Origin: a plasmid | Strand: one strand, 5' to 3' | Length of the DNA stretch: 64,000 bases | Sequence record: NZ_CP067424.1 | Part shown: positions 9,949 through 54,459 of the stretch, piece after piece | Layout: each line of letters opens with the position of its first letter | How positions within the stretch are numbered: position 1 is the first letter of the stretch | The notes under the pieces: generated by a model | The model's input: the letters and a program-made list of their open reading frames with translations, nothing else | Database searches by the model: none | Told to the model about the DNA's origin: nothing | Translations under genes and position numbers: made by a program

Positions 9949-9959
9949 GGTTCGCACAT

Positions 9960-30000: not shown

Positions 30001-30020
30001 GGAGGACACTATAAAACAGG

Positions 30021-30846: not shown

Positions 30847-31110
30847 GACCACCTTTGACCGATCGGACCTGGAGAAAGCCTTTCGCGAGTGCTACGACAC
30901 CGTTCATCGGCATTTCGAACAATTACCCGAATAGTGAGCTGCGCATTAGTGGATGTCATTCAAGATTTTCCATCTCTGGTACGGCAGCGTACCATCAGAA
31001 AACGTTCCTTGTGCTCTCTTCCATCAGGACTGACTAGCTTCAGGAATTTTCCTCCCTGATCTGATGGCCATCCAAGCTCCCGCGGATGGCCACTTTTTCG
31101 TTGGAAGGCT

Positions 31111-31317
31111 ATGGCACAGGATCGCGTCTGTCTGCTTGATCACCTGGACGGCCTGATCTATCTGGCCGATCAGGCATGGCAGCTTCCACCGGGCAGAAGT
31201 TTGTATCTCGTGCATACCTTCCAGCACCTGGGGCAGGCATATCAGGATGCCGCCCTGGCGCAGCGGGAAGAGCGGCCCACACGGTTGCGTATCTCGTATA
31301 ATTACATTCTCAAGTAG
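31111..31317 (+). CDS. Small paralog P1 (68 aa) of a four-gene tandem family
   Basis: LLDHLDGLIYLADQAWQLPPGRSLYLVHTF… is homologous to P4 (LLDQVNGVISLADVAWRLPPGRSASLARKF…). Followed by a conserved intergenic motif TAGTATATTT…GTTCCGCGATCC. Confidence 0.4.
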   Translation: MAQDRVCLLDHLDGLIYLADQAWQLPPGRSLYLVHTFQHLGQAYQDAALAQREERPTRLRISYNYILK

Positions 31318-31356
31318 TATATTTTTCCATATTGTTTGTTCCGCGATCCTGCCGCC

Positions 31357-31612
31357 GGTGGCCTGTTGGGTCGGGACGGAACAGGACCATGACAGTGTGC
31401 ATGTCGGCCTGGACCGGTTGATTGAACTGGCGCGCCAGGCTTCGCCAGACAAGCGCATGCGGCTGATCCGGGCATTCCGGCAGGTCGCCGAGGTACTCCA
31501 GGAGGTCATTCGGGTTCGGGAAGAAATGCACGGCGCCGGGAATGAACCCAGCCGGCGGTACCCTGTTAGGGACCTATGGAAATCGATTACGCAGCCTCGC
31601 GCGCCCGCCTGA
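31357..31612 (+). CDS. Small paralog P2 (about 85 aa, GTG start)
   Basis: …VGLDRLIELARQASPDKRMRLIRAFRQVAEVLQEV… aligns with P1, P3 and P4 (LD.L..LA.QA..P…L…F…V.E pattern). Confidence 0.3.
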
Positions 31613-31851
31613 AACGGCTAACGGAACTGCTGGAAATAATCCGGGGAGCTCCGCACCAGGATCAGGCTCGGCTGTCACAGACCCTCATGCTGGTCTGCCA
31701 GGCGCTTCAGACTGTTGCCCGGGTACGTTTGCAGATCGGCGATCCCGGACAGGTGAGGCAGGCCGTCGAGCTTGAGGCGCTGTGCTGGAAGTTCGAGAGG
31801 ACGGCCCTGCGGTACGAAACGCGCTCGAAATTCAGAGGTGATCAACTGTAG
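31576..31851 (+). CDS. Small paralog P3 (91 aa), overlaps the P2 3' end in another frame
   Basis: MEIDYAASRARLKRLTELLEIIRGAPHQDQARLSQTLMLVCQALQTV… resembles P2. 37-nt overlap suggests translational coupling. Confidence 0.35.
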   Translation: MEIDYAASRARLKRLTELLEIIRGAPHQDQARLSQTLMLVCQALQTVARVRLQIGDPGQVRQAVELEALCWKFERTALRYETRSKFRGDQL

Positions 31852-31870
31852 CGATCTTCCCATAGCACTA

Positions 31871-32125
31871 GCCATGAGCAGGCTTGACCCGATCCACCGG
31901 TCGGTTGTTGCATGGGGCATGGAGCAGCATGATCCTACCCTGCTCGACCAGGTGAACGGGGTTATTTCCCTGGCGGACGTGGCGTGGCGCCTACCGCCGG
32001 GGCGTTCCGCTTCCCTGGCCCGGAAATTCCGGCTTATCGGCTTGGTCTTTGAAGCCTCTGCGGCTGTCCAGAAGCGCGATATGCTTAGAGAGCTGCAAAT
32101 CACATACGACGACATCCGTCAGTAG
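31871..32125 (+). CDS. Small paralog P4 (84 aa)
   Basis: Homologous to P1. The same conserved 3' flank (TAGCATATTTACTATATCGTTGGTTCCGCGATCCGGCCG) follows it. Confidence 0.4.
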   Translation, partial: AMSRLDPIHRSVVAWGMEQHDPTLLDQVNGVISLADVAWRLPPGRSASLARKFRLIGLVFEASAAVQKRDMLRELQITYDDIRQ

Positions 32126-32331
32126 CATATTTACTATATCGTTGGTTCCGCGATCCGGCCGTCGCCGGATCAGCGTGTATTTCCAGCGGGCTCGCGCCTC
32201 GCGCGAGGTTGTAGGCGTCGCTGAAGGCCGGTTCCGGCCCTCTTGACACAAATTCTGGTGCTGCCAGCGGTTGGAAGGCAGGGATGCAGACTGGCTTAGC
32301 GATGATCCTGTCCGTTCGATGGATGGTCGCT

Positions 32332-33645
32332 CTAACAGGCTGCGGAAAAAGGGCTGTGCACGGGCGGGCGGTCGTGATTCTCTTCGGTGGTGTAGACTGC
32401 GGCCGGCGAGGGGACGATGCGGGGATTGGACGAACGCAGCGAGGGTCTGTTCAGCTACGTGAGCTGTGAAGCGCGGGTTCCGGCGAGCCATCCGTTGCGG
32501 CCGATCCGGGCCATCGTGGACGAGGCGCTGGAGGTGATGTCGCCGGCCTTCGAGGGGCTGTACTCCAGGATTGGGCGACCATCGATCCCGCCGGAGAAGC
32601 TGCTGCGGGCGCTGCTGCTGCAGGCCTTCTACTCGGTGCGCTCGGAGCGTCAGCTGATGGAACAGCTCGATTACAACCTGCTGTTCCGCTGGTTCGTCGG
32701 CCTGTCGATGGACGCGCCGGTGTGGGACGTGACGGTGTTCACCAAGAACCGTGAACGGCTGCTGGCCGGCGATGTGGCGGCCAAGTTCCTGGCTAGCGTG
32801 CTGGATCAGCCGCGGGTCAAAACGCTGCTGTCGGACGAGCATTTCTCGGTGGACGGCACGCTGATTGAAGCGTGGGCCGCGGTGAAGAGCTTCCGGCCCA
32901 AGGACGGCAGCGGCGAGCCGCCGGGGCCGGGACGCAACGGCGAACGCGACTTCCATGGCGAGAAGCGCTCCAACGAGACCCACGCCTCGACTACCGATCC
33001 CGAGGCGCGGCTGTACCGCAAGGGCAACGGGCAGCCGGCGAAGCTGGCCTTCATGGGTCATGCGCTGATGGAGAACCGCCACGCCCTGGTGGTGGATGTC
33101 CGGCTGACGGCGGCCACCGGCTTGGCCGAGCGCGAGGCGGCGGTGGCCATGGTCGAGGCCATTCCGGGCCGCCACCGCATCACGGTCGGGGCCGACAAGG
33201 CCTACGACACCAGGGATTTCGTGGCGAACATGCGCGAGTTGGGCGCGGCCCCGCACGTCGCCCAGAACACGAACAACCGCCGCTCGGCGATCGACGGCCG
33301 GACCACCCGCCACCCCGGCTACGCCGTCAGCCAGCGGATCCGCAAGCGGATCGAAGAGGTGTTCGGCTGGATCAAGGGAGCCGGCTTGCGCAAAACGCGT
33401 CATCGCGGCACGGCCCGTGTCGGTTGGATGTTCACGCTGACCGCCGCGGCCTACAACCTGATCCGCCTGCCCAAGCTGCTGGCTGCGGCATAATCACGTC
33501 CGGAGCCCGCCTCAACGGCGGCTCCGCGAGCCCTGGATCGAGGCAAACCGCTCCATCTCGACCAAAACGGGCGTCCAAAGCGCCCTCTTCAAGCCTCGGC
33601 GGAGGCAACGGCGCTGCGAAGGCCCATTTTTCCGCGTCCTGCTAA
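32332..33645. mobile_element. IS5-family insertion sequence with 4-bp TSD CTAA (32332-35 and 33642-45)
   Basis: Imperfect terminal IRs CAGGCTGCGGAAAAAGGGCTGTGC (32336-) and CAGGACGCGGAAAAATGGGCCTTCGC (inverted, ending 33641). CTAA direct repeats match the IS5 target preference. Confidence 0.75.
32417..33493 (+). CDS. IS5-family DDE transposase
   Basis: 358 aa with the N-terminal …HPLRPIRAIVDEALEVMSPAFEGLYSRIGRPSIPPEKLLRALLLQ and C-terminal …RIEEVFGWIK… blocks typical of IS5/IS1031-group transposases. Confidence 0.85.
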   Translation: MRGLDERSEGLFSYVSCEARVPASHPLRPIRAIVDEALEVMSPAFEGLYSRIGRPSIPPEKLLRALLLQAFYSVRSERQLMEQLDYNLLFRWFVGLSMDAPVWDVTVFTKNRERLLAGDVAAKFLASVLDQPRVKTLLSDEHFSVDGTLIEAWAAVKSFRPKDGSGEPPGPGRNGERDFHGEKRSNETHASTTDPEARLYRKGNGQPAKLAFMGHALMENRHALVVDVRLTAATGLAEREAAVAMVEAIPGRHRITVGADKAYDTRDFVANMRELGAAPHVAQNTNNRRSAIDGRTTRHPGYAVSQRIRKRIEEVFGWIKGAGLRKTRHRGTARVGWMFTLTAAAYNLIRLPKLLAAA

Positions 33646-33677
33646 AGGCATTGCCTGACGGGGTCTTTGGTGTACTA

Positions 33678-33700
33678 TTGACTACGAATTATTTGTAGTA
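33678..33700 (+). promoter_or_regulatory. Putative trb promoter/operator: TTGACTAC-N9-GTAGTA (palindromic, overlapping a -35-like TTGACT)
   Basis: TACTATTGACTACGAATTATTTGTAGTATTAC 27 nt upstream of trbC. A near-identical element is at 40843-40865 upstream of trbG. Confidence 0.45.
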
Positions 33701-33726
33701 TTACGCAGCCTTGAGGGAGTCATCCT

Positions 33727-34044
33727 ATGCGCAAGACCTTGGGCGATGCAGCATCTTTCGCGCTGGCCACGCTGATCGTCACCGCGGCCGACCCGGCGCT
33801 GGCGCAGTTCAACGGCGGCGGTGACGTGCCGTTCCAGCAGGGTATGAGCACGGTGCTGAACTGGGCCTTCGTCGCCGGCATCGCGGTGGCGCTGTTCTCG
33901 TTCATCCTGGCCTGCGTCTTCCTGTTCATGCGGAACCTGATCGGTTTCGCCGGCGGTGTCCTGGGCGTCCTGATCGGCGGTGCGCTGATGGCGAATGCCC
34001 CGACCATCGTCCAGGGGCTGACCAACCTGTCGAGCCCGTTCTGA
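33727..34044 (+). CDS. trbC: T4SS pilin TrbC (VirB2 family)
   Basis: 105 aa. Long signal peptide, then two hydrophobic helices (…WAFVAGIAVALFSFILACVFLF…GGVLGVLIGGALMA…). Confidence 0.8.
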   Translation: MRKTLGDAASFALATLIVTAADPALAQFNGGGDVPFQQGMSTVLNWAFVAGIAVALFSFILACVFLFMRNLIGFAGGVLGVLIGGALMANAPTIVQGLTNLSSPF

Positions 34045-34319
34045 TGGAGGCCGGGCGGACTTACAAGAGCCTGGAGGTGCCGCCCAACTATTTCGGGTGC
34101 CACATCCACGTGGCGCTGATCGCCATCCTGATGCCGGTGGCGGCCCTGCTGGGCTTCCTGTTCCTGGACTGGCTGACGGCCCTGCTGCTGGTGCTGTCCG
34201 CCCTTGGCTCTTCCGCGACCGTGTTCTCGCTGGGTGCCTGGTTCGGACGCGAAGACCCTTACTGGGTCGAGGGCGGGCAGAGGCATCTCCTGGACGAGGA
34301 GCACTATCTCGATGTTTAG
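34044..34319 (+). CDS. trbD: TrbD (VirB3 family)
   Basis: 91 aa, TGATG overlap with trbC, single TM. Sits between pilin and the VirB4 ATPase, the canonical position. Confidence 0.75.
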   Translation: MEAGRTYKSLEVPPNYFGCHIHVALIAILMPVAALLGFLFLDWLTALLLVLSALGSSATVFSLGAWFGREDPYWVEGGQRHLLDEEHYLDV

Positions 34320-36822
34320 GATCGGAGCGAACCGGGGGGCGGCTGCCGTCCCCCTGACGGCCAAGCTGCCGTGGGCCTACTTCGCCGAGCAGGGCATCGT
34401 GTTCCTGAAGTTCGGCGGCTTCATGCGTACCCTGCGGTTCCGCGGCGGCGATGCCGACAGCATGAGCGAGACCGACCTGGTTGCCACGATGCGGCGACTG
34501 CACGATGCCCTGCGCCGGGTGCGTGGGCAGATGAGCCTGCACATCGAGGCGCAGCGCCGGCCGGCGTCGCCCTATCCCGGCGCCGACCTGGGCGACCGGG
34601 AGCGCCGCGCCCTGTGGCCGGACCCGATCTCCTTCCTGTTCGACGAGGAGCGCCGCACCGCCTACGACCGGACCGGTTCCCAGTTCGAGACCGACCGCTA
34701 CATCACCTTCGTCTGGCGTTGCTCGCGGGCATCGACCCGCCGGGCGCGGTCCTTCTTCATGAGCGGCAAGAAGAAGGCAGGCAAGGCCGGCAGCGCCGAA
34801 CTGCACGAATTCGTCCAGGCCAGCAATGCCGTGAAGGGCATGCTGGACGGCGTCATGAAGGAATGCGCCTGGCTCGACGACGACGACACCTTCGACTTCC
34901 TGCACAAGGCGGTTTCGGTCCATCAGCACCGGGTGAAGCCGTCCTACGGCAAGGCCCGGATCGACTACGACGTTGCCGACTGCCGGGTGGTCGGCGGTGC
35001 CGAGCCGATGCTCGGCCCGTGCCACATGCGGACGATCAGCGTCAAGAATTCGCCGGACACCATCCCCGCGGCGCTGGCCGCGCTGGACTCCCTGCGGTGC
35101 GAGTACCGCTACTCGATCCGGTGGATGGGCATGGAGCACGCCGAAGGCCTGCGTCGCATCGAGCAGCAGCTGCGGGACTGGAGGATGCTCGGCATCGCGA
35201 TGATCCCGATGCTGATCTCGTACATGCTTCGGTCGAACAAGCAGAAGGAGAACGAGGCGGCCAACGCCATGGCCGAGGATGCGCAGGAAGCCATCTACGC
35301 GGTGCGCCGGGATGACCTGACCATCGGCCACGCCACCATCAATGTCGTTGTCTGGGACCGTGACGAGGAACGGCTGGAGAGAAAGGTCGGGTGGGTCGAG
35401 GACACCCTGCGCCGTCAGCAGCTCACCGTCACCAGCTACACCGTGGCGCCCCTCGACACCTGGCTCGGCACCTTGCCCGGCCACATCTACGCCGACCTGC
35501 GCCGGCCGATCCGCACATCCGTCAACCTGGCGCACTTCGCACCCTATTCGTCGGTGTGGTCCGGCGAGGTGTGCAACGATCACCTGTCCAGGAAGCTGGG
35601 CCGGCCGATCCCGCCGCTGCTGATCGCCACGACGGACGGGTCGACCCCGTTCCGGCTGAACCTGCACCGCGGCGACCTGGGCCACACCCTGATCTTCGGC
35701 CCGTCCGGCAACGGCAAAACCACCCTGATGAACGCCATGATCACCGGGTGGCGGCGCATCCCCGGCTCCAAGGTCTGCATCTTCACGATCAAGGGCGGCG
35801 GCGAGGTCGTGACCCGGCTGCTGGGCGGCGTCTCCTACGATGTCGGCGCCGTGGGCCCGGGGGCGCTGGGCTTCCAGCCGCTGCGGTATGCCGACGAACC
35901 CAACGAGCGCATCGAGCTGCTGGAATGGGTGCTGGGCCTGATGCGCGCCCAGGGGATCGACACGAACAGCGCCGTGGTGAAGGAGGAGGCGACCGGTGCC
36001 CTGGACCTGATCGCCCGGAACCCGCCGGAACGACGCACCCTGACCCACTTGAGCGGCTACCTGACCACCGAGGTGCTGAAGCGGGCGGTCCGGCACTATG
36101 CCCTGGCCGGCGACACCTACGGCCGGCTGCTGGACGATGACCGGGACCGGATCGAGCTGTCGGACATCCTCAGCCTGGACATGACAAGCCTGCTGAAGAA
36201 GACCGACGTGGCCCCGCACGTCCTGGCGCACCTGTTCCGCTACGTCGAGCGTCGCGTCTTCACCGGGGACCCGGTGCTGCTGGTGGTCGACGAGGCGTGG
36301 CTGTTCCTGGGCGACAGCCGGTTCGCCGCGAAGTTCGATGAGTGGCTGCGGGCCGCCAGGTCGAAGAACGTGGTCGTGGTGTTCGCCACCCAGAACATGA
36401 AGGATGCCTTCGACAGCGTCATCGGCAAGGTGCTGGCCGATGCCGAGAACGTGCCCAACATCATCCTGCTGCCCAACCACCGCGCCGGCAGCGAGAAGGG
36501 CCGGAAGCCTTACGAGCAGCTGGGATTTCACGAACGCGACATCGAGATCGTGGCAACCGCCACGCCGAAGCGTGACTACTACTTCACGTGCCCTGACGGC
36601 GCCCGGCTGTTCGACCTGGGTCTCGGTCCGCTGGGCCGGGCGCTCTGCTCCTCTACCGACACGAAGGACGACCTCGGCTTGGCCCGGGGCATCCTGGCCG
36701 ACCATCCCGCTGAGGAATTCGCAGAGCACTTCCTCGACGCCAAGGGCGTGGGCTGGGCAGCTGAGTTCGTCCGGCATGAGGCAGGGCGTCGGCCAGTCGA
36801 AATCGCCGCGGCCGCTGAGTAG
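34312..36822 (+). CDS. trbE: Conjugal transfer ATPase TrbE (VirB4 family)
   Basis: About 835 aa. Walker A GPSGNGKTT. Walker B …VLLVVDEAW. ATGTTTAG overlap with trbD. Confidence 0.9.
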   Translation: MFRIGANRGAAAVPLTAKLPWAYFAEQGIVFLKFGGFMRTLRFRGGDADSMSETDLVATMRRLHDALRRVRGQMSLHIEAQRRPASPYPGADLGDRERRALWPDPISFLFDEERRTAYDRTGSQFETDRYITFVWRCSRASTRRARSFFMSGKKKAGKAGSAELHEFVQASNAVKGMLDGVMKECAWLDDDDTFDFLHKAVSVHQHRVKPSYGKARIDYDVADCRVVGGAEPMLGPCHMRTISVKNSPDTIPAALAALDSLRCEYRYSIRWMGMEHAEGLRRIEQQLRDWRMLGIAMIPMLISYMLRSNKQKENEAANAMAEDAQEAIYAVRRDDLTIGHATINVVVWDRDEERLERKVGWVEDTLRRQQLTVTSYTVAPLDTWLGTLPGHIYADLRRPIRTSVNLAHFAPYSSVWSGEVCNDHLSRKLGRPIPPLLIATTDGSTPFRLNLHRGDLGHTLIFGPSGNGKTTLMNAMITGWRRIPGSKVCIFTIKGGGEVVTRLLGGVSYDVGAVGPGALGFQPLRYADEPNERIELLEWVLGLMRAQGIDTNSAVVKEEATGALDLIARNPPERRTLTHLSGYLTTEVLKRAVRHYALAGDTYGRLLDDDRDRIELSDILSLDMTSLLKKTDVAPHVLAHLFRYVERRVFTGDPVLLVVDEAWLFLGDSRFAAKFDEWLRAARSKNVVVVFATQNMKDAFDSVIGKVLADAENVPNIILLPNHRAGSEKGRKPYEQLGFHERDIEIVATATPKRDYYFTCPDGARLFDLGLGPLGRALCSSTDTKDDLGLARGILADHPAEEFAEHFLDAKGVGWAAEFVRHEAGRRPVEIAAAAE

Positions 36823-36831
36823 GAGGAAACA

Positions 36832-38775
36832 ATGCGTCCGTCCGTGATCGCCGGTCTGTTGCTGACCGGCACCGCCATCGGGACCCCCGCCCTGGCGGCA
36901 ACCATCGAGGTGCAGCCGGGCGACAACCTGGAGGCTAAGATCCGCTCGGCCCGGCCGGGCGATACCGTGGCGGTCCGGCGCGGCACCTACAACGGCAGCC
37001 TGGATCTGAGCACCCTGCACGGTGATCCGGGGGCGCCGATCCGCATCCTCTCGGTTGACGGCAAGGGTGCCGCGGTGATCCAGGGGAGCCGCGATCAGGC
37101 CGCCGTGCAGGCCAACCGGATCTCGAACGTCGAGATGGACGGCTTCCATGTGGTCGCCAACGCGCCCGGCGGCGGTGACGTCGGCGGCTTCAAGCTGTGG
37201 GGGCCTTACGGCGACATCGGCAACCTGAAGATCACGAACAACCTGATCACCGGCCAGGGGCAGGACGGCTTCAAGCTGTTCAACATGTCGCCGACCGACC
37301 AGCAGAGCGTCCTGGTGGCCGGCAACACGATCGACGGTAACTGGCGTCAGGAAGCCATCGACAACGTCAGCGTCAAGAATGTCCGGTACGAGGGCAACAC
37401 GATCAGGGGCAAGGCTGGCTTCGCCGGCATCACCTGGAAGGCCGGCAGCGACGGCGTGCAGCTGGTCAACAACACGATCGACATCGACGCCGATACGGCG
37501 GTCTCGGTTGGCGGCTACGGCAACAGCCGCCTGAACCGGATGGACCGGTTCCCCGACGAGTTCCAGGACAACGAGGCAGAAAACAGCGTGGTCACCGGCA
37601 ATACCATCCGGGGCGACGTGCGGGTGATCTCGGCCGAGAACAACCGAGTCGAGGGGAACAGCATCACCGGCAGCATCAGCAACGGCCAGAACAGCCACAT
37701 GCCGGGCTCGATCACCAGCCGGAACAACGCCATCGCCCACAACAGAGTGACCGGCGGCACGGGAGCGTCTGCCTGGAACGGCAACACCGATACCCAGTTC
37801 GAGCGCAACGTGGACGGCCTGGCCAACAATTTCTACGACACCGACGAGCAGTTCTGGGGGGCGGTGGAGCGCGGGGAAGCGGGCGCGCTGCGCCGGCTGA
37901 ACGACCTGGTGTCCGGCGGCATCATCGTGCGCGAGGGCAACCGGATCATCAACAGGGCCACCGGCCAGATCACCAGCGCGGTCGGCAACGCCATCGGCGA
38001 CGCTGTCGACACCGTGCTGCAGCCGGCGGAGGATTACGTCGACGCTGCCGTCGAGACCGTGAAGTGCAACATCGGCGGCGCAGTGATCGGTGGCGCCGCG
38101 TCGGTCGTCAGCGGGATTTTCTCGGGCGGCCGGGCGACGCTGGCAGCACAGATCGCCCAGCAGATGACCGCGATCGCCGGCAACCTGTGCCTGGGCAAAC
38201 AGCTCGCCGCCCAGCAGCGCCTTGTCGAACTTGCCAGGCGGGACAATGCCCACGGCACGGCCGACAATGCCGCCGGCCTCAACGGCATGATGACCAGGAC
38301 CCTGCCGGGGCTGGCGCAGGGCGGCTTCCTGTCGTCCGAGCAGGCCATCGCCAGCCAGTACGGCGAGGTGTACCCGGATGCCTTTCCGCCCATGCTGCCG
38401 GACGACCTGGTTGCCGTGAACCGGTCCATGCAGGCCCACGAACGCACGGTACACCTGAACAGCTTGGCGGTCCAGAACCGGACGGTCCAGGAACAGGCCG
38501 ACACCCTGGAGCGGGCGCGCGACCATGCAGCCGCCGGCCGGGCCGGTGACGGCATCCGCTCCGAGCTGCAGGCCATGAACGCCATTGGCGGCGAGCAGAT
38601 CGCGGCGATCAACAGCCTGACGGCGGCCACGGTAGCTAATCATCGTGCTTCGACCGAGATACAGTTACGGGACGAGTCAAGGAAAGCCGCAGCAAACGCA
38701 ACGGCCGAGGAGTTCATGTCGACCCTGGCGACTTGCGGGAACTGCACCATAGACCGCCCGTTTTTGGGCGAATAG
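36832..38775 (+). CDS. trbJ: Fusion protein: signal peptide, right-handed parallel beta-helix domain (about aa 30-400), then TrbJ (VirB5-like) domain (about aa 400-647)
   Basis: PbH1-type repeats (GNTIDGN, GNTIRG, NNTIDIDAD, GNTIRGDVRVISAENNRVEGNSITG, NNAIAHNRVTGG). The C-terminal coiled-coil region (YGEVYPDAF…LQAMNAIGGEQIAAINSLTAATVANHR…) is homologous to P-type TrbJ. Single uninterrupted ORF with a good RBS. Confidence 0.75.
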   Translation: MRPSVIAGLLLTGTAIGTPALAATIEVQPGDNLEAKIRSARPGDTVAVRRGTYNGSLDLSTLHGDPGAPIRILSVDGKGAAVIQGSRDQAAVQANRISNVEMDGFHVVANAPGGGDVGGFKLWGPYGDIGNLKITNNLITGQGQDGFKLFNMSPTDQQSVLVAGNTIDGNWRQEAIDNVSVKNVRYEGNTIRGKAGFAGITWKAGSDGVQLVNNTIDIDADTAVSVGGYGNSRLNRMDRFPDEFQDNEAENSVVTGNTIRGDVRVISAENNRVEGNSITGSISNGQNSHMPGSITSRNNAIAHNRVTGGTGASAWNGNTDTQFERNVDGLANNFYDTDEQFWGAVERGEAGALRRLNDLVSGGIIVREGNRIINRATGQITSAVGNAIGDAVDTVLQPAEDYVDAAVETVKCNIGGAVIGGAASVVSGIFSGGRATLAAQIAQQMTAIAGNLCLGKQLAAQQRLVELARRDNAHGTADNAAGLNGMMTRTLPGLAQGGFLSSEQAIASQYGEVYPDAFPPMLPDDLVAVNRSMQAHERTVHLNSLAVQNRTVQEQADTLERARDHAAAGRAGDGIRSELQAMNAIGGEQIAAINSLTAATVANHRASTEIQLRDESRKAAANATAEEFMSTLATCGNCTIDRPFLGE

Positions 38776-38787
38776 GAGGATAATAGA

Positions 38788-38964
38788 ATGAAAACTTTGG
38801 TAATCGCCTCGATCCTGCTTGTCGCCCTGTCCGGTTGCTGGGACGCCGAGCAGAAAAAGAAGTCGGACGACTTCATGAGCAACCTGACGAAGTGCGAGAA
38901 TGACTGCCGGATTACCGAACCCTTCCTGGGCGGCGGCAAGAAGGGCGAGGGCGATGGACGCTGA
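38788..38964 (+). CDS. trbK: Small lipoprotein (58 aa), probable TrbK-like entry-exclusion protein
   Basis: MKTLVIASILLVALSGC lipobox. RBS AGGAGGATAA. Sits between trbJ and trbL as in RP4/Ti. Stop overlaps the trbL start. Not in the ORF track (<60 aa). Confidence 0.45.
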   Translation: MKTLVIASILLVALSGCWDAEQKKKSDDFMSNLTKCENDCRITEPFLGGGKKGEGDGR

Positions 38965-40099
38965 TTACGCCTACCTCAACGCTGCCATCAAAGAGATGCT
39001 GGCCCGGGTCACGTCTACCGGATCCGCCATCGACGCGGCGCTTCAGCCGGTGTACCTGATCACCGGCACGCTGCTGTTCGTCATCGCGTTGATGAAGTTC
39101 ATGTGGCAACGCGACTTGGCGCCGCTGGCCGCGTTCGTCATACGCTATATGCAATTGATGGTTCTGATCTTCATATCCGGTCAGTGGATGCCGCTGACCG
39201 ATGCGTATGTTTCCGGCATGGGTAGTTTCGGCGCCGGCATCGCGGGGTTCGATATCCTGCAACTGGCTCCGGGAACGGTGATCGTTCGCGCGCTGGAGCT
39301 GGCGAACAGGATGTACAGCGAGAACGTCTCCTGGATGCGCCTGATGCTGGGCAGTACGCAGGACACGGTCGCTCACCTGCTGCTGCTGATCGGATGCGCC
39401 GGCACGATCCTGCTGAGCATCTTCATGGCCGCCTGGATCATGCTGTTTTTCGTGGTCTTCAAGCTCGCCACCGTGGTGGCACTCGTCTTCCTGGCCTTCA
39501 TGATGTTCGACAGCACCCGGTTCATGGCGGCGCCGGGTCTGGCGCGCATCGTGGCTTACGGCACCCAGATGCTGGTGCTGGGACTCGCCACAGGCATGTT
39601 CTTCATGGTTCTGGATGCCCTGGACCTGAGCGGGCACCTGCATGTCGGCCAGTCGATCTCGCTGCTGGTGGTCATGTTCTTCTTTGCCCTGCTATTCAAG
39701 TACACGACGGATATCGCGCGCGAGCAGCATTCCGGCATGCCGACCCTCGGGCTTCACGACATTGGCCGGACTGCCGGGCAGATAGCCGGCGCCGCGGCCT
39801 CGACGGTGGGCACGATCGGCACGGTTGGCTTGGGCGCCCTTGCCATGTCTCGCGCCGCCGCGATCTCCCGGCCAGCGACTGCTTCCTACGCCATGACCGG
39901 CCCTGGCGCTGCCGGCGGTTCGGCCGGTGCCATCGGTGGGCCGCCGCCGTCCGTCGCCCGCATGCTCAACAAGCCGTCGGTCGACGCGACCTGGACGGAG
40001 GCCCGGGACCTCGCCCCGGCCTCGGTCCAACGGATGCTGAGCCAGAGCCGGAAGGCATTGCCGGCACCGCCGCGCCAGCTGCCCCCTCCCCGTTCCTGA
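38954..40099 (+). CDS. trbL: TrbL (VirB6 family) polytopic membrane protein
   Basis: Multiple TM helices. Gly/Ala/Pro-rich C-terminal tail. Position after trbJ/K. Confidence 0.8.
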   Translation: MDADYAYLNAAIKEMLARVTSTGSAIDAALQPVYLITGTLLFVIALMKFMWQRDLAPLAAFVIRYMQLMVLIFISGQWMPLTDAYVSGMGSFGAGIAGFDILQLAPGTVIVRALELANRMYSENVSWMRLMLGSTQDTVAHLLLLIGCAGTILLSIFMAAWIMLFFVVFKLATVVALVFLAFMMFDSTRFMAAPGLARIVAYGTQMLVLGLATGMFFMVLDALDLSGHLHVGQSISLLVVMFFFALLFKYTTDIAREQHSGMPTLGLHDIGRTAGQIAGAAASTVGTIGTVGLGALAMSRAAAISRPATASYAMTGPGAAGGSAGAIGGPPPSVARMLNKPSVDATWTEARDLAPASVQRMLSQSRKALPAPPRQLPPPRS

Positions 40100-40121
40100 T
40101 CGTTCTCGATAGGGGTTTTCC

Positions 40122-40799
40122 ATGCTCGGTTTGAACCGCGGTCACTGGAAGGAAGACGACGAGTACAGGAAGGCCCGCTGGGCCTACGAAGGTCAAGGTG
40201 CCGGCGCCACCAGAGCGGCATGGTTCCTGGGCGCCGGACTGATCGCCGTCACGGCGTTCGCCGGCATCCAGACCTATGACAAGCACCTGCTGGCCAAACT
40301 GGACGACCTGAAGTTCGTGGCGATCGAGAGCAACCGGACCACCGGCGAGGTTGTCAGCGTGTCCAAGGTGACCGGCGAACTGATGGCCGACGAGACCAAG
40401 CGCCGGCAGTTCGTGCGGTGGTGGATCGAACTGTGGCGCAACGTGCCGGCCGATGCCGTCGCCTACAATCGCTCCTACCTGGCGGCCCAGGTCTACATGG
40501 CCGACCCGGTCCACCACGCGGTCGCGGCCTACATGAGCGAGAACCCGGTCAACACCTTCATCCGGTCGGGCCATGCCCGCATGGTGCGGGTCCAGAACGT
40601 GACGCCGGCCGGCAACGGCACCCGCTACCGGGTGGACTGGATCGAGAGCGTCTACCGGAACAGCCAGCTGGTCAACCAAACGCCAATGACGGCCGACCTG
40701 GACCTGGAGCAGCACACGCCGCGCACCGATGCGGAGGCCGAGGCCAACATCTTCGGCTTCGTGGTGAAGGGTTTTTACTGGACCCCGCCGGCGATGTGA
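40122..40799 (+). CDS. trbF: TrbF (VirB8 family)
   Basis: 225 aa. N-terminal TM, then NTF2-like periplasmic domain (…VYRNSQLVNQTPMTADLD…). Canonical position. Confidence 0.8.
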   Translation: MLGLNRGHWKEDDEYRKARWAYEGQGAGATRAAWFLGAGLIAVTAFAGIQTYDKHLLAKLDDLKFVAIESNRTTGEVVSVSKVTGELMADETKRRQFVRWWIELWRNVPADAVAYNRSYLAAQVYMADPVHHAVAAYMSENPVNTFIRSGHARMVRVQNVTPAGNGTRYRVDWIESVYRNSQLVNQTPMTADLDLEQHTPRTDAEAEANIFGFVVKGFYWTPPAM

Positions 40800-40842
40800 C
40801 AATGTAAGTGCCTTTCCCCGAGAGGGCACGATCATTATACTC

Positions 40843-40865
40843 TTGACTACTATATTTTTGTAGTC
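40843..40865 (+). promoter_or_regulatory. Second copy of the TTGACTAC-N9-GTAGTC palindromic operator/promoter, upstream of trbG
   Basis: TATACTCTTGACTACTATATTTTTGTAGTCATG. Same spacing and flanks as the copy at 33678. Confidence 0.45.
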
Positions 40866-40891
40866 ATGCCGCTTCGGGGGATGTGCTGACC

Positions 40892-41761
40892 ATGAGACGT
40901 GCCGCCTTCTTGATCCTTCCGCTCATCGCAGGGTGCGCCTCGTCAAAGTACGAAGCGCCCCTGCCGACCCTCCCCTCGGCGTCCCTTCAGCTGCCGAGAG
41001 CACCGGCCCGGCCGCCGCTGCCGGACACCCTGCCGAAGCTGCCGGCCGAAGATCCGGTCAAGGCCATTGCCGGTGCCACCAAGGACGGCCTGGTGAAGCC
41101 GCGCCGGGAGTGGTTCAAGGGGCTGACCTACATGCCGCCCTACCACCCGAACCACGGCTACCTGGTCTATATCCCGTTCGGCCTTTCCTCGACCTTCGAG
41201 TTCAGTCCCGGCGAGAAGCCGCAGGATGCGACCTGCAGCGACAGCAGCGGCAACATCATCGCACCAAGCTGGTCGAGCATGGGCGTCGGTGCCGGAAAGA
41301 AATGGGTTTTCCAGGTCAAGGTGACGATGGAGCCGCCGTTCCCCCGCCAGGACTGCACGGTGCTGACCACCCGCGGCATCTACTCGATCTATGTCCAGGG
41401 CACCAGGAGCACCCATACGGCCAAGGTCCGCTGGTCGGACCCTTACGGTGTGCTGTCCGAGGCCGACCCCGAAGCGCCGGAGCCGTGCGCCCAGGCCGAC
41501 ATCGACTATGCCCTGTCCGGTGATCCCGGCGCCTTCGGCCTGCGTCCGGGCGACGTCTCCAACGACGGCCGGCATACCTGCCTGCGGTTCCCGCAGTCCG
41601 CGGGCTTTGACCTTCCTTCCGTCTGGCTGATCGAGGGCGACCAGGAGCGCCCGGCCAGCCCGACCATGATCGACGGTGCCTACAGGATCGACGGGGTTCC
41701 CCGCGTGATCGAGCTGCGCACCGACAATGCCACCCTTCGCATCGAGAGAGCCGCGCCATGA
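40892..41761 (+). CDS. trbG: TrbG (VirB9 family) lipoprotein
   Basis: MRRAAFLILPLIAGC lipobox, then a Pro-rich linker and VirB9-like beta domains. ATGA overlap with trbI. Confidence 0.85.
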   Translation: MRRAAFLILPLIAGCASSKYEAPLPTLPSASLQLPRAPARPPLPDTLPKLPAEDPVKAIAGATKDGLVKPRREWFKGLTYMPPYHPNHGYLVYIPFGLSSTFEFSPGEKPQDATCSDSSGNIIAPSWSSMGVGAGKKWVFQVKVTMEPPFPRQDCTVLTTRGIYSIYVQGTRSTHTAKVRWSDPYGVLSEADPEAPEPCAQADIDYALSGDPGAFGLRPGDVSNDGRHTCLRFPQSAGFDLPSVWLIEGDQERPASPTMIDGAYRIDGVPRVIELRTDNATLRIERAAP

Positions 41762-42846
41762 CCCAGGCAGAGACCGAATACGTTGACCCGCCGCGGTCGG
41801 TGAACGACCCCCGGCCGCCGATCCACACCATGCTGAAGTGGCCGGTTGCCCTGGCCGGCACGGCGATGGTCGCCCTGCTGGCCGGCATCACCATCGGCCC
41901 CACCCTGTTCCGGGACGAGCCGGAGCCCAAGCGGGTGGACCCGGAACCGAGGATGGCCACGCCCCGTCCGCTGCACGGCATGCCGACGGATTACAGCCAG
42001 GTCCAGCCGCCGCCGGAACCGGAAGCAGTACCCGCCCCGGCGCCCGCCCCTGCCCCTGTGGCGGCGCCGGCTCCCGCCCCGGTCACCCGCGTCATGGGGG
42101 GTGGTCCGAGAGGGCCGACCAAGACCGAGTTGTTGAGGGAGGCGATGCGCTCGCCGCTGAAGCCGATCCCGATCACGTCGGGCGGCAACGTCGCGGTCGA
42201 GCAGGCCGCTGTCGGCGGATCGGGCGGCGCCGCACCGGCCAGCAACCTCTACAGCCGGCATTCCCTGGTCGATCCTTACGAGTGCCAGGTCAATGCCGGC
42301 ACCAACATCCCGGCCATGACCGAGCAGCGCATCACCAGCGAGTCACCTGGCACGGTATCGGCGGTGGTGACCCGGGACGTCTGGAGCGCCGACAAGGCGT
42401 GCCTTGCCATCCCGCGGGGTACCCGGTTCGTCGGCCGCTACCAGACCCAGGTGGCCGAGGGACAGGCGCGACTCGGCGTGATCTGGACCGGCCTGACCCG
42501 CCCGCCGCCGCGCAACGACACGATCGACCTGGACGACACCGTGGCGGGGGATCCGGACGGCACCGCCGGGCTCAGCGGCGAGGTGAACGGCTTTTTCTGG
42601 CGCAAGCTGGGCTATGTGGCCGCCGCCTCGCTCCTGGACATCGGGCGGACCAGCATCCAGGCGACCGGCGAGGGTGGCATGGGAGCCGCGATCGCGGGCA
42701 TTTTCGCCAATCGTGCCACGAGTCCCATTGATGAATGGGCACGCCGCCAGTTAGACATTCCCCCGGTGATACAGGTGCCGCCGCGCGAGATCAGCATCGT
42801 CCTGGCGCGGCACGTGCCGATGGACGAGTTCAGAACCGGGAGATAG
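41758..42846 (+). CDS. trbI: TrbI (VirB10 family)
   Basis: N-terminal TM. Pro-rich region (PEPEAVPAPAPAPAP). Conserved C-terminal VirB10 barrel region. Confidence 0.85.
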   Translation: MTQAETEYVDPPRSVNDPRPPIHTMLKWPVALAGTAMVALLAGITIGPTLFRDEPEPKRVDPEPRMATPRPLHGMPTDYSQVQPPPEPEAVPAPAPAPAPVAAPAPAPVTRVMGGGPRGPTKTELLREAMRSPLKPIPITSGGNVAVEQAAVGGSGGAAPASNLYSRHSLVDPYECQVNAGTNIPAMTEQRITSESPGTVSAVVTRDVWSADKACLAIPRGTRFVGRYQTQVAEGQARLGVIWTGLTRPPPRNDTIDLDDTVAGDPDGTAGLSGEVNGFFWRKLGYVAAASLLDIGRTSIQATGEGGMGAAIAGIFANRATSPIDEWARRQLDIPPVIQVPPREISIVLARHVPMDEFRTGR

Positions 42847-42853
42847 GCCAGGG

Positions 42854-43177
42854 ATGCCCCAGCGCGACGACAAGATCGGCGTCAGTTTCGGAAAGATACC
42901 GTCGGAGCGCTGGGAGCAGATGCAGCCCCTTCCGGGAGCCGTGACCGAGAAGGCCATCGCGTTACTGGACCAAGCCCGCCGCGCCGGCCGGGAGGTCGTC
43001 TACCCGGCCAGCCTGAAGGTCGGACTGTCGAAGAAGCTCTGGCTGACGCCGGAGACGGTCAGGGTGATCGACCGCATCAGCGAAGAGACCGGCCAGCGGC
43101 GCACCCCGATCATCCTCGCCGCGCTGGACCTGTATTTCTCCGCCGCTCGATCAGGGCAAGGCCAAGCAGAAGACTGA
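42854..43177 (+). CDS. Small protein following trbI (DUF2274-like / ribbon-helix-helix)
   Basis: 107 aa, …RRTPIILAALDLYF. Same operon. DUF2274 proteins characteristically follow trbI. Confidence 0.4.
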   Translation: MPQRDDKIGVSFGKIPSERWEQMQPLPGAVTEKAIALLDQARRAGREVVYPASLKVGLSKKLWLTPETVRVIDRISEETGQRRTPIILAALDLYFSAARSGQGQAED

Positions 43178-43298
43178 GGACGACAACCCCGCCCCAGGTG
43201 AAGAATGCCGCCTCGTACGGCGCCAGCGCCCTGTCGATGGCGCCGAAGATCATTTCGGCCAGCAGCCAAAGCGTCAACAGCAGTACGGGGCGGTTCAT
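43110..43298 (-). CDS. Small membrane protein (about 61 aa, two TM helices)
   Basis: MNRPVLLLTLWLLAEMIFGAIDRALAPYEAAFFTWGGVVVLSLLLGLALIERRR. Antisense-overlapping the end of the preceding gene, so uncertain. Confidence 0.25.
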   Translation of the reverse strand: MNRPVLLLTLWLLAEMIFGAIDRALAPYEAAFFTWGGVVVLSLLLGLALIERRRNTGPARRG

Positions 43299-43525: not shown

Positions 43526-44014
43526 CTACGGCCGCCCTCTCATCCATACGATACGTCGCCCCCGGGTATCATCAGACCCACCGTTTTTTGCTGTCGCGGG
43601 TGAGCTGATGCCCATCGCGGCGTCCGTCAGCACGTGAGCGTCCTTGACCAGACGGCGAAGCATGTAGAACTCGGTATCGTCCTCGATCACCTCCGCCAAC
43701 GCGGTGAATTTTGCCAGGAAATCAACCATCGTGGCGGGTTGCTCATTGGTCAGCGCGGTCATGGCGCGCGCTGCGGCAGCGTCGGCGTCGACCCAGATGT
43801 CGAAGTACTGGGCGGAATCAACCGCCTCCGTGCCGGCTGTCAGAAGCTTGTAGTCGGTGATCAACTCAGCCATTCGGGGCGAGACACCGACCGGCACGGT
43901 GGTGTCGATAATGGAAGCCACCGGAGCATCATGGGTTGCCGAGCTGCAGGTCAGGATACTGCGCTGGTAGGTTGCCCCGCGGACGCTGATCGAGTATCGA
44001 TGATGACCACTCAT
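43526..44014 (-). CDS. Hypothetical protein (162 aa)
   Basis: Clean ORF convergent with the trb operon. No motif recognised. Confidence 0.35.
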   Translation of the reverse strand: MSGHHRYSISVRGATYQRSILTCSSATHDAPVASIIDTTVPVGVSPRMAELITDYKLLTAGTEAVDSAQYFDIWVDADAAAARAMTALTNEQPATMVDFLAKFTALAEVIEDDTEFYMLRRLVKDAHVLTDAAMGISSPATAKNGGSDDTRGRRIVWMRGRP

Positions 44015-44163: not shown

Positions 44164-44781
44164 TCAAGGCTTGATCCAAAGGATCGGGGAGGCATTCTTC
44201 AGTAAAACATCATCCAGGGGAAACGGTCTGCCTCCTGAAGGAACCGATTTGTCACAGCCTTCGACCCCTATAAACTTTAGATTGTATAATCCTGGCTCTG
44301 TTCCTCTGTCGACATAGGCCAGATAGGCCTCTCCATTCGGCAGGGTGACTATGGACAGCCGCCCAATCGATCCGGCATCAACGATGTTTTCTTTTCTAAA
44401 ATAGAGAACTGCTCTATGAAGCGGAGATAATGTGTTAAGAACTCTTATTCCCACGGTCCCTTCCGGAATGTTGGATGGAACTATAAAGGTGTCCTGTGTT
44501 GACACTTCATCTTCGACCAACCGGTTGTTGTGCTCGATATGGCCAACGATGTTTATTCTTTTTGATCTGATCCCTTCCAGTACCAGGCCGGCATTACTCA
44601 GGACATCCTCGATCGGTGCACCGATGAACTCCGCGATCCGAGCGGCCTCATCCAACTGCATCCGGCGTTTGCCTTTGAACATCAGCGTGATCGCGCTCGG
44701 ATCGAGGCCCAGATAGCGCGCGAGCAGGCGCTGGCTCAATCGTTTAAGGGCAAGTTGCTGTTGAAACCACTCCGCGTTCAT
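44164..44781 (-). CDS. cI/LexA-like repressor (XRE HTH plus S24 peptidase domain), SetR-like
   Basis: N-terminal HTH LSQRLLARYLGLDPSAITLMFKGKRRMQLDEAARIAEF. C-terminal S24-like segment (…GRLSIVTLPNGEAYLAYVDRG…). 205 aa. Lower GC than the backbone. Confidence 0.7.
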   Translation of the reverse strand: MNAEWFQQQLALKRLSQRLLARYLGLDPSAITLMFKGKRRMQLDEAARIAEFIGAPIEDVLSNAGLVLEGIRSKRINIVGHIEHNNRLVEDEVSTQDTFIVPSNIPEGTVGIRVLNTLSPLHRAVLYFRKENIVDAGSIGRLSIVTLPNGEAYLAYVDRGTEPGLYNLKFIGVEGCDKSVPSGGRPFPLDDVLLKNASPILWIKP

Positions 44782-44970
44782 GGCATTTCCAGCAGCTTTT
44801 CATATAAAACAACATCAACATGCTACGTTATTATATCAACGGGCAGATAAGGGGATTATGGATGGGAGGAGGCAGGAAGTCGGGCTTTTCTGGCTTTGGC
44901 CAAGCTTATTCGTTTTCGACGATGCCCGGCTGAAGACCTGTATAGCCCGCTCGGCCAGGCAAGGCGCTGT

Positions 44971-45141
44971 TGACGGGAGGGGTTGTCAACTACCGAGGCC
45001 GGTGTGAGCCGCATTTCCGATGCGTTCGTGAGTCGAGCCGCCACCGAGCGGCGACCGGCTCGTCAGCGGCCGAGGTCAACAGGGTTCGCGGGGACCCGCG
45101 CGCACAAGCGCAGCGCGGAGCGTGGGCGGAACCCTGTTGAC
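44971..45141. promoter_or_regulatory. Cluster of GTTGAC/GTCAAC inverted repeats upstream of the repressor gene
   Basis: GTTGAC-N10-GTCAAC at 44971-44992. Perfect 13-bp arms GTCAACAGGGTTC / GAACCCTGTTGAC at 45075-87 and 45129-41, with a GC-rich self-complementary 41-nt spacer. Confidence 0.4.
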
Positions 45142-45281
45142 CCCCACCCGATGAATACCCTTCTGGCTCTCCTCCGGTTGCCACCGGCAACCGGAGGAGA
45201 TGCCGGCCCGGCGAGGGCACTGCTTTTCCCTTGCCCGGTTCTTGGGCGGATGAACACCGCCACAACTCTGGGCACCCGATT

Positions 45282-46721: not shown

Positions 46722-47894
46722 GTGTCGGCACCGGGCCGGGATTTCGCCACCGAGAAACGCAAGGCACAGATGGACGAGAAACCGGACCCTGCCGACGATC
46801 CCGAGCGGCTCGCGGCCCTGCACGATTACCAGGTCCTCGACACACCGCGCGAGGCCGCCTTCGACACCCTGGTCGAACTCGCCGCCCGGATCTGCGCGGT
46901 GCCGGTCGCGGTGATCAACCTGGTCGAGAGCCGCCGCCAGTGGTTCAAGGCCGAGCTTGGCCTGGGTGTGCGGGAAACCCCGATCGACGTGTCGATCTGC
47001 CGCCACTTCCTGCTGCGGCCCGGCCTGACCGTCGTCCCGGACACGCTGCGCGACGAGCGCCTGTGCTGCAATCCCCTGGTGACGGCCGACGACGGCCTGC
47101 GCTTCTACGCCGGCTGCCTGCTGCAGACCGCCGACGGGCACGCCATCGGTACCCTGTGCGTGCTCGACCGGCGCCCGCGCGACCTCGACGCGGACCAGCG
47201 CTTCGCGCTGCGGGCGCTGGCGGACCAGGTCATGGCCCAGCTCGAGCTGCGCCGGACGCTGCGGCAGAAGAGCCGGCTGCTGGAGCGTCACGAGCTGCTG
47301 ATCCGCGAGGTCAACCACCGCACCAAGAACAACCTCCAGCTGATCAGCAGCATCATTAGCCTGCAGCTGCGCTCGATCGACGATCCGGCGGCGCGGGCGG
47401 CGCTGCTCGACACCGGCAGCCGCATCCGCAGCATCGCCGCGGTGCACGAGCAGCTCTACCGGGCCGACCAGGTGGGCGCGGTGGACCTCGGCACGTTCCT
47501 GCAGGCCCTGGCCCCGGGGCTGCAGTCGTCGGCGCCCCACGGCGTCACGCTCACCGTCGAGGCGGCCCCGGTCCCGGTCCCCCTCGACACGGCGGTTCCG
47601 GTCGCGCTGATGGTCAACGAGTTCGTCACCAACGCGCTGAAGTACGCCTACGGCGAGGGCACGGGCGGTCCGGTCCGGGTCGTGCTCCGGACCGTCGGCG
47701 GGCGGGTCGAGCTCGTGGTGCGGGACCATGGCCGGGGACTGCCGGCCGACTTCGACCTGCGGCGGAGCCGCTCGCTGGGCATGCGCATCATCCTGTCGCT
47801 CGCCGGGCAGATCGACGCCGCCGTCGTCATCGGCAACGCCGATCCCGGGACCGAGTGCCGGGTGAGCTTCGGCGCGGCGGTCCCGTCCGCCTGA
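46722..47894 (+). CDS. Sensor histidine kinase, GAF domain plus HWE/HisKA_2 kinase
   Basis: N-terminal GAF (…VINLVESRRQWFKAELGL…HFLLRPGL…GTLCVLDRRPRD). H-box EVNHRTKNNLQLISSII typical of HisKA_2/HWE kinases. C-terminal ATPase region. Confidence 0.8.
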   Translation: MSAPGRDFATEKRKAQMDEKPDPADDPERLAALHDYQVLDTPREAAFDTLVELAARICAVPVAVINLVESRRQWFKAELGLGVRETPIDVSICRHFLLRPGLTVVPDTLRDERLCCNPLVTADDGLRFYAGCLLQTADGHAIGTLCVLDRRPRDLDADQRFALRALADQVMAQLELRRTLRQKSRLLERHELLIREVNHRTKNNLQLISSIISLQLRSIDDPAARAALLDTGSRIRSIAAVHEQLYRADQVGAVDLGTFLQALAPGLQSSAPHGVTLTVEAAPVPVPLDTAVPVALMVNEFVTNALKYAYGEGTGGPVRVVLRTVGGRVELVVRDHGRGLPADFDLRRSRSLGMRIILSLAGQIDAAVVIGNADPGTECRVSFGAAVPSA

Positions 47895-53614: not shown

Positions 53615-53859
53615 ACGAGGTGCGCCCCCGGCTCCCCGGCAAAGTGCCGGACAGGACGACTTCGCCCGGCAGATCGGACTCCAGCAAGGCTCCACCGCCG
53701 GGACGGTCGTGCCAGGCCGGGGGCATGGCACGCGGGCTTGGGCCGGATGCAGTCCAGGCAGCCAAACGGCATCAGGAAAATGCAGGTACGCATGCCGGCA
53801 CTTTCGATTGAACAGAGTTGGCATTGAGGCTGTTTGCCCAGTACGGCTGCTGTGCCGCG

Positions 53860-53921
53860 ACACCTTCTTTGGGTGTCTCCTCCCTAGACTCAGGCCGCCT
53901 GTCGAAGGCGGCCTTATTTTT
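53860..53921 (+). other. Conserved double-hairpin element, copy 2 (ACACC-TTCTTT-GGGTGT, CTCCTCCCTAGACTC, AGGCCGCC-N7-GGCGGCCT, T-run)
   Basis: Shares the CTCCCTAGACTCAGGC core and both stems with copy 1 at 23863-23926. Stem 1 differs by a compensatory pair (G/C to A/T). Confidence 0.35.
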
Positions 53922-54459
53922 GCACAAAATGGAGCGTTCGCCAATTGCAATCGAACCATCCTGTGTCGTTCTCCCGGAACCGTGCACAGGGAACAGCCTT
54001 CTCGGGGCATGGCGTCGGTCTGCCCGGGCGGGCGCTGCAGGGCGGGCACAACCGCTGGAAAATCGGAGCCCGAGCTTAGTCAACGCGGCCATCCCGGCCG
54101 GAGGACCAGCAGCCCGACGGTGTCGGTGTCGGTGACGGCATGGGCAATGATGATGTTGGCGAGCAGATCCTGGCGCCCATCGTCGAACCCACCAAGGCAC
54201 AGGCTGTCGAGGATACGGGCCAGGACAGAGTGAAGAACCCACATGAGAAGAGCCGACAGGGCCAGCCCCCAGGCAAAGGACCCGCTTCCGAACCCGTGCC
54301 AGCCGATCGAGGCGAGCGGTTGCCTTTCCCAGAGCAGGACGAGCACCACGATGGTCGCCGTCAGGACAAGAAGGTAAACCTGTCGAGGACGCGGGTGCAC
54401 AGGGCGTGCTCGGCTCCGAGGCATCGGTGACCGGACTGGCGCCGCTTGAGGCAGAACAT

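Follow-up and report, generated by a model that had tools for sequence, protein, structure and literature searches.

The window analysed here is a stretch of 64,000 nucleotides of a plasmid (sequence record NZ_CP067424.1), and our subject is an orphan gene for a CI-like repressor (44164-44781, minus strand, 205 aa) located near the trb end of a type IV secretion system (T4SS) cluster, together with the short palindromes and the structured DNA that lie upstream of it. A sequence-only reading of this region had described the product as a repressor with an XRE-type helix-turn-helix (HTH) and an S24 autopeptidase domain, comparable to SetR of the SXT/R391 elements, and had seen in it a possible SOS or other stress switch for conjugation. 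The open reading frame (ORF) and its HTH were borne out by the ORF list and by a Pfam match to HTH_3 (E 2.6e-6). The gene sits within an islet of low GC content (43-55%, versus 62-74% in the flanks). The proximity to trb that had been pointed out is real, about 1 kb separating the repressor from the last trb-type genes, but gene and operon are convergent and not co-transcribed. On the other flank are a molybdopterin oxidoreductase fragment, GTP cyclohydrolase I and a GAF-HWE kinase.

Two small ORFs come after the repressor on the same strand, and both are called as genes in the identical contig L015. The nearer one (43526-44014, minus strand, 162 aa) begins 149 nt downstream of the repressor. 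It had no match in Pfam, PHROGs or PADLOC, is not homologous to the genes of about 150 aa found 3' of the phage repressors described below, and is possibly cargo co-expressed with the repressor. The other codes for a hydrophobic product of 62 aa (43110-43296, minus strand) and overlaps the 3' end of the trb-distal gene (107 aa).

The two-domain architecture of CI and LexA is preserved in the protein. The XRE/Cro-C1-type HTH covers residues 12-59 (44605-44748, minus strand), the only stretch matched by Pfam (HTH_3, HTH_26 and HTH_31), and a search of NCBIfam added nothing. The AlphaFold2 model, made from 17 homologues (pLDDT 86.9), shows five helices at the N-terminus, and the beta domain at its C-terminus (residues 74-205, 44167-44562, minus strand) takes the lambda CI/LexA (S24-like) fold. 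The best Foldseek matches in the PDB were full-length lambda CI (7jvt and 3bdn) and LexA (3k2z), and the C-terminal fragment of lambda CI (2ho0) was matched with a TM-score of 0.67 (normalised to the target). At the level of profiles, hhalign of the repressor family against lambda cI gave a probability of 91.9% over both domains, reaching residue 193.

The fold, and with it the CI/LexA-like character assigned earlier, is therefore supported, but the autopeptidase is not, since neither a PF00717 match nor the catalytic residues are present. Peptidase_S24 (PF00717) did not match the repressor even at E<=10, nor any of 129 representatives of its family at E<=0.01, and phmmer and hmmsearch against the PDB, tried as another route to S24 membership at the sequence level, returned only HTH matches and one weak match to full-length lambda CI. 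Aligning the protein for the Ser-Lys dyad and the Ala-Gly site, the check that had been suggested, found none of them in the protein or conserved in the family, which on the protein side is the result that had been named as refuting the proposal. The lysine K192 of lambda (LexA K156) pairs with Ala155 (Asp158 in an alternative register), and the equivalent column among the 129 representatives reads R/G/A, with 1% Lys. Lambda S149 (in G-x-S-M; LexA S119) has a deleted loop, or else Leu, Val or Asp, as its counterpart, the loop that holds it being 6-9 residues shorter in this family. The cleavage position A111-G112 is aligned to His84-Asn85 in the repressor, and the family consensus there is D-(A/G)-x-G, not the A-G (or C-G) of a scissile bond in the linker. 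No column of the C-terminal domain has more than 43% Ser in these representatives, and at least 50% Lys is reached only by the column of the penultimate residue (K/R/Q). Since the dyad and the Ala-Gly site are missing in both protein and family, RecA-stimulated autocleavage would be unlikely, and the C-terminal domain probably represents a non-catalytic, S24-derived module for dimerisation or oligomerisation.

A way to place the protein is to look at the company that its homologues keep. A HMMER profile search over 1.84 billion representatives (clusters at 50% identity) retrieved 276 clusters at E<=1e-30 and 1127 at E<=1e-10. The closest relatives are 50% (P0002 and P0004), 40% (P0005) and 30% (P0017) identical to the repressor, and in all four loci the repressor and a P22_Cro-like gene diverge. 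Three of these loci have a helicase gene on the cro side, accompanied by VRR-NUC and primase genes on the contig of P0005 (46.5 kb). Downstream of the repressor, P0002 and P0005 have YqaJ and RecT, followed in P0005 by an integrase. The annotated starts of P0002, P0004 and P0005 seem to be too far upstream. Among phage records, 42 match the repressor, 39 of them over at least 80% of its length, and the homologues share 28-34% identity over 80-100% of the protein, including the HTH and the C-terminal domain. They include the cultured Burkholderia phages Bcep22, BcepIL02, DC1 and JC1 and the Ralstonia phages GP4, RPZH6, Gerry and RpY1, and some are annotated as 'cI-like putative transcriptional regulator' or 'repressor'. 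Bcep22 and JC1 share the gene order repressor, divergent regulator, RecB-like nuclease and RecT. JC1 forms stable lysogens, and its gp7 has been handled as a lysogeny gene (PMC9144972). A subgroup from Dongia is located in chromosomal contexts without phage genes. No full-length homologue was found by tblastn in 72,556 plasmids (PLSDB), which gave one match limited to the HTH, and the gene is absent from the plasmids with related T4SS clusters, pTT6-3, pTT6-5 and pSR-5. Judging by these sequences, the family is made up of immunity repressors of the cI type, carried by temperate phages similar to Bcep22 and by related prophages of alphaproteobacteria.

The relatives also indicate what the repressor might bind. 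The four closest loci (L005, L012, L014 and L019) carry a palindrome of 17 bp, RTTGAC-N5-GTCAAC, 16 nt upstream of the conserved start codon, where it overlaps a promoter-like TTGACA-N17-GATATT. More copies with the N5 spacing are located beside cro and just downstream of the repressor gene, a placement that reproduces the O_R/O_L layout of lambda. Their number is well above that in shuffled sequences (four versus 0.6 expected in L005, at 7943-8032 and 8666, and three versus 0.12 in L012, at 5314, 5586 and 6492; in L014 they are at 2947 and 3779). L005, L012 and L014 belong to metagenomic alphaproteobacterial phages related to Bcep22, with the N5 operators at the cro, cI and downstream (P_L-like) promoters. 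The recognition-helix stretch LDPSAITL is common to the repressor and its closest phage relatives, and because these have RTTGAC-N5-GTCAAC operators it is a reasonable guess that GTTGAC is also the half-site of the protein in the window.

In the window, the arrangement is different. With up to three mismatches, the N5 operator has no intergenic match in the repressor region or at the T4SS promoters, the single match in the repressor region being intragenic with three mismatches, and over the whole window such matches are below the chance expectation. A scan of GTTGAC palindromes with any spacing from N0 to N15 and up to one mismatch did not find any at a T4SS promoter. The only perfect site in the 64 kb is a GTTGAC-N10-GTCAAC at 44969-44990, 188-209 nt upstream of the repressor ATG. 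It is the palindrome that the sequence-only reading had placed two bases further right (44971-44992). Its half-site centres are about 16 bp apart versus 11 in the N5 operators, it lies precisely where the islet meets the structured repeat described below, and it is missing beside all other copies of that repeat. It may be a vestigial operator, a re-spaced one or an artefact of the junction. Closer to the gene, a weak promoter-like TTGATA-N17-GATGTT (44811-44839, minus strand) came out of reading the sequence and comparing it with L005, L012, L014 and L019. A consensus promoter scan did not pick it up; it is a putative repressor promoter by its position, which is that of the promoter-like motif of the relatives.

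Four GTTGAC/GTCAAC hexamers fall within 173 bp, against about 0.08 expected (28 in the whole 64 kb), so that their clustering is not due to chance. The view that all four are candidate operator half-sites holds to the extent that the hexamer is the half-site of the closest relatives, but two of them are the stem ends of a conserved repeated element, and the remaining pair has the N10 and not the N5 spacing. A 13-nt imperfect inverted repeat, GACAACCCC(G/T)CCC, is found at both borders of the islet (43182-43194 and 44975-44987), one arm right after the stop codon of the trb-distal ORF and the other within the N10 palindrome. We do not claim it as a transposon end, a repeat of this length being at chance level, although its placement is suggestive of an insertion.

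The second conspicuous component of the locus is the hairpin upstream of the repressor, which had been described as a 67-nt structure at 45075-45141 with perfect arms of 13 bp. The structure exists, and its perfect arms are 14 nt long (45074-45087 and 45129-45142). It is the central long helix (45074-45142, plus strand) of a structured repeat of about 190-230 nt. This copy, A, occupies 44995-45225 (plus strand), with a 5' extension from 44995 that is conserved in four copies and a match at 45034-45225 (175 bits) to a covariance model, R1, of 185 positions and 45 pairs. A second hairpin (45168-45200, plus strand) has perfect arms of 15 nt and is also conserved with covariation. Copy B (25178-25360, minus strand; 144 bits with R1) was recognised by BLAST with the copy of pSR-5. 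The two copies flank the T4SS cluster, are about 72% identical and are inverted relative to each other. A gap of 20 nt separates copy B from the 81-aa ORF upstream of it (25380-25625), which diverges from the operon of a 256-aa protein and the type IV coupling protein (T4CP); the layout is the same in pTT6-5 (L025: ORF at 4679-4981, then the element at 4988-5170). A MqsR/MqsA toxin-antitoxin pair (24331-25097, plus strand) adjoins copy B.

By BLAST, 44995-45225 matches unannotated intergenic DNA at unrelated loci of several Skermanella plasmids: copy A is 92% identical over the core to pTT6-3, 81% to pSM-1 of S. mucosa, and 79% and 73% to pSR-1 and pSR-5 of S. rosea. R1 finds 14 full copies in the sequences searched, among them the two of the window, three in pTT6-3, inverted doublets in pSM-1 and pSR-1, and copies in pTT6-5. 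BLAST adds others on further Skermanella plasmids. Paired cells amount to 91.5% in the repeat and to 35-49% in controls with slid 3' partners, compensatory changes are seen in 25 of the 45 pairs, and the covariation score is 0.476 versus 0.128 at most in the slid controls, values that come from a 14-copy alignment fitted to R1 itself. The mid-stem of the long helix is swapped among copies (AGGG/CCCT, CCCC/GGGG, AGCC/GGCT, ACCC/GGGT), and even the last base of the stem hexamer GTCAAC covaries (GTCAAG/CTTGAC, GTCAAT/ATTGAT). Rfam had no relevant match for the two window copies or for those in L001, L002 and L004, at the gathering threshold or at E<=10. Pattern scans of a collection of species-representative genomes (two scans) and of a collection of metagenome contigs did not return any copy, even with a pattern that fits all the known ones; in the genome collection the copy-bearing plasmids of S. 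mucosa, S. rosea and TT6 are missing or masked. A 46-nt segment of the GAF-HWE kinase gene (47715-47760) matches, at 89-91% identity and in reverse orientation, positions 6934-6979 of L002 and L003, which directly adjoin the left side of the repeat in pSM-1 and pSR-1.

Since the repeat occurs on Skermanella plasmids without any homologue of the repressor, the 67-nt hairpin is part of a separate repeated element (acting as RNA or as single-stranded DNA) and not the operator of the repressor, as had been proposed. In the strand as given there are more G-U pairs than A-C mismatches, and several copies are followed by T-rich tails, both compatible with an RNA. The plasmid location, the inverted doublets and the positions by ORFs of the T4CP and trb operons would suit an element working as single-strand DNA: small ORFs that diverge from the T4CP operon directly precede it in the window and pTT6-5, and the trb-distal ORF is upstream of it in the window and pTT6-3. 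The bracketing of the T4SS by two copies is not general, because pTT6-3 and pSR-5 have no copy at the far end. The hairpin was also considered as an origin of transfer (oriT), on account of the inverted repeat and an ATCCT-like motif, and as a sigma-70 promoter; the motifs were too weak in both cases, no relaxase is adjacent, and we have set both aside as speculation. Tentatively, and with more doubt than confidence, we would describe the repeat as an undescribed family of structured nucleic acids specific to Skermanella plasmids, either a small RNA or 3' untranslated region RNA or a single-strand DNA element (oriT, single-strand initiation site (ssi) or recombination site), that recurs at the ends of a T4SS module lacking a recognisable relaxase and beside which the repressor islet landed by chance or by targeting.

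Taken together, we consider it probable that the gene codes for an orphan phage repressor of the cI type that is not cleavable and not wired to the T4SS promoters, with the hairpin being a separate element. In the relatives, the immunity region would read cro, O_R, cI and, further on, O_L and the recombination genes, with the repressor predicted to bind RTTGAC-N5-GTCAAC between the divergent genes and ahead of the recombination genes. On this Skermanella-type plasmid only the repressor and the two small downstream ORFs appear to survive. No cro or further phage gene was detected in the window by tblastn with the neighbour genes of the relatives or by Pfam, and there is no integrase or other phage gene near the repressor; weak tblastn matches near 5547-5741, considered as remnants of phage genes, led nowhere. 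The simplest history would be the insertion of a phage immunity fragment (the repressor and its two small ORFs) between the trb operon and a pre-existing repeat, because pTT6-3 lacks the islet but has trbI, a small ORF and, oriented as here, the repeat. The protein would bind DNA by its N-terminal HTH and most likely still recognises GTTGAC-type DNA as a dimer, the C-terminal domain, devoid of dyad and cleavage site, probably serving dimerisation or cooperativity. Most likely it would autoregulate its own small operon, and it could confer homo-immunity against related phages with GTTGAC-type operators. If the protein can be induced at all, an antirepressor or a distinct protease would be required, as in non-cleavable repressors of the Gifsy type.

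Several observations do not sit comfortably with this explanation. The canonical N5 operator is not recognisable at the repressor's own promoter, so that even autoregulation would be a prediction, and both the non-random cluster of hexamers and the N10 pair of family half-sites some 190-210 bp upstream may leave room for some role in binding. A non-conserved serine, Ser119, lies in the loop where S24 enzymes carry their nucleophile, and a non-canonical base is conceivable. The gene is intact, and an independent assembly (L015) has an identical repressor protein in the same context, so that it is not obviously decaying.

This last point bears directly on the possibility that the gene is a functionless relic, a decaying fragment of prophage immunity with no current role. 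The absence of cro, operators, integrase and other phage genes nearby, the atypical GC content and the abundance of mobile elements in the surroundings (Tn3, IS5, IS66) would be expected of such a relic. The ORF, however, is full length in the alignment with 16 homologues and keeps every position conserved in the family, including the C-terminal PxLWIKP motif, two intact co-oriented ORFs come after it and the second assembly is identical, so that we find a relic unlikely. An intact gene is what would be expected of a repressor domesticated for plasmid functions, non-cleavable but acting on the T4SS module or on the flanking repeats through GTTGAC-type sites (the N10 palindrome and the TCAAC/GTTGA stem ends), its repression being lifted by an antirepressor or some other signal. 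The recognition helix shared with relatives that have GTTGAC half-site operators, the four hexamers within 173 bp, the UCAA/UUGA core of the stem, nearly invariant in the 14 copies, and the repeat copies on both sides of the T4SS cluster in the window all fit this idea. Against it, the N10 half-sites are about 1.5 helical turns apart, unlike those of the N5 operators, the stem-end hexamer itself covaries, the repeat is present on plasmids without any homologue of the repressor, and the T4SS promoters have no sites. We regard domestication as a rather improbable alternative.

Far more improbable is the original proposal of a SetR-like, RecA-cleavable repressor that couples transfer to the SOS response through GTTGAC operators. 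The two-domain fold of CI and LexA, the trb genes nearby and the clustered hexamers made this proposal attractive, but the dyad, the Ala-Gly site and the PF00717 match are missing in protein and family alike, the gene is downstream of trb and convergent with it, no T4SS promoter has an operator-like site, two hexamers out of the four form the ends of a stem in a repeat that also occurs where the repressor does not, and none of the 72,556 plasmids has a full-length homologue, the family being one of phages and not of conjugation regulators. A switch linking conjugation to SOS is not supported. If the gene is an orphan phage repressor, as we favour, it is an ordinary one, and the structured repeat is the more novel by-product of the analysis.

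The T4SS cluster itself is of the trb/virB type and runs on the plus strand from 26181 to 43177. It includes the T4CP (26944-28725) and VirB11 (29017-30000), followed by an IS5 insertion, a VirB2-like protein, VirB4, a 647-aa protein, VirB6, VirB8, VirB9 and TrbI/VirB10 (41758-42846), and the 107-aa trb-distal ORF that ends at 43177. The IS5-family element (32331-33644) is 98.7% identical to a copy in pSM-1 of S. mucosa, which points to a host resembling Skermanella, and lies within a 3.7-kb insertion that parts virB11 from virB2/virB4 and possibly disrupts the transfer operon. The window has no recognisable relaxase, and pTT6-3, pTT6-5 and pSR-5 are typed as non-mobilizable. Immediately upstream of the T4CP, the window and these three plasmids have a conserved ORF of about 210-280 aa without a Pfam family. 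Two matches to the Rfam family RF00519 (suhB/mmgR small RNA), at 23858-23934 (46.7 bits) and 53855-53929 (52.4 bits), both on the plus strand, are above the gathering score. Mobile elements make up a mosaic in the left half of the window, with a RepA_C replication gene (11602-12690) in their midst. Tn3-family transposases are found at 173-3223, 6952-10023, 13598-15895 and 18404-18892 (three full or partial and one N-terminal fragment), and there are also IS66, Mu-like and IS5 transposases, resolvases and a tyrosine recombinase.

The nearest known counterparts of the repressor are those of the Bcep22-like phages (Lessievirus: Bcep22 gp13, BcepIL02, DC1 and JC1 gp7) and of the Ralstonia phages, which are likewise about 195-205 aa long and show the same absence of Ser and Lys. 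The window copy differs from them in what surrounds it, having no divergent cro-like gene, recombination genes, integrase or N5 operators, and in being located on a plasmid, beside a T4SS operon and in an islet of low GC. With lambda CI, LexA and SetR it shares the HTH and the C-terminal beta fold, and its relatives share with lambda an O_R/O_L-like arrangement of 17-bp palindromes, but the Ser nucleophile, the Lys base, the Ala-Gly site and the PF00717 match set these proteins apart from it. SetR of SXT/R391 is part of the regulatory module of an integrative and conjugative element. The repressor of the window is outside any such module, and neither setCD-like activators nor operators at the transfer promoters were found in the window.

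For its induction, the nearest precedent would be the repressors of the Gifsy-1, Gifsy-2 and Gifsy-3 prophages (GfoR, GtgR and GfhR), CI-type proteins that are not cleaved on induction and are inactivated by antirepressors (PMC3121763). The analogy would be one of mechanism only, and it differs in that neither the window nor the relatives yielded an antirepressor gene. The analysis removes the tempting annotation of a SetR-like SOS switch for conjugation, and illustrates that a CI/LexA-like fold need not mean autocleavage. The catalytic dyad is missing from the S24-like domain of a whole family of phage repressors that comprises at least 276 clusters (50% identity), and this points to induction of the antirepressor type, or of some other type, in the Bcep22-like phages.

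As for the structured repeat, the families to compare are intergenic palindromic repeats of alphaproteobacteria, of the RIME or REP/BIME kind, and single-strand hairpin elements of plasmids such as ssi/Frpo and oriT repeats. With all these it has in common being multi-copy, intergenic, plasmid-borne, rich in long palindromes and sometimes arranged in inverted doublets. It differs from them in the lack of an Rfam family, of an adjacent relaxase and of a demonstrated nick site or promoter, and also in being much longer (about 190-230 nt), with several helices, conserved internal loops and strong covariation. The repeat is a modest but concrete lead to a new RNA or cis-acting DNA element of transfer, partly associated with a relaxase-less T4SS module.

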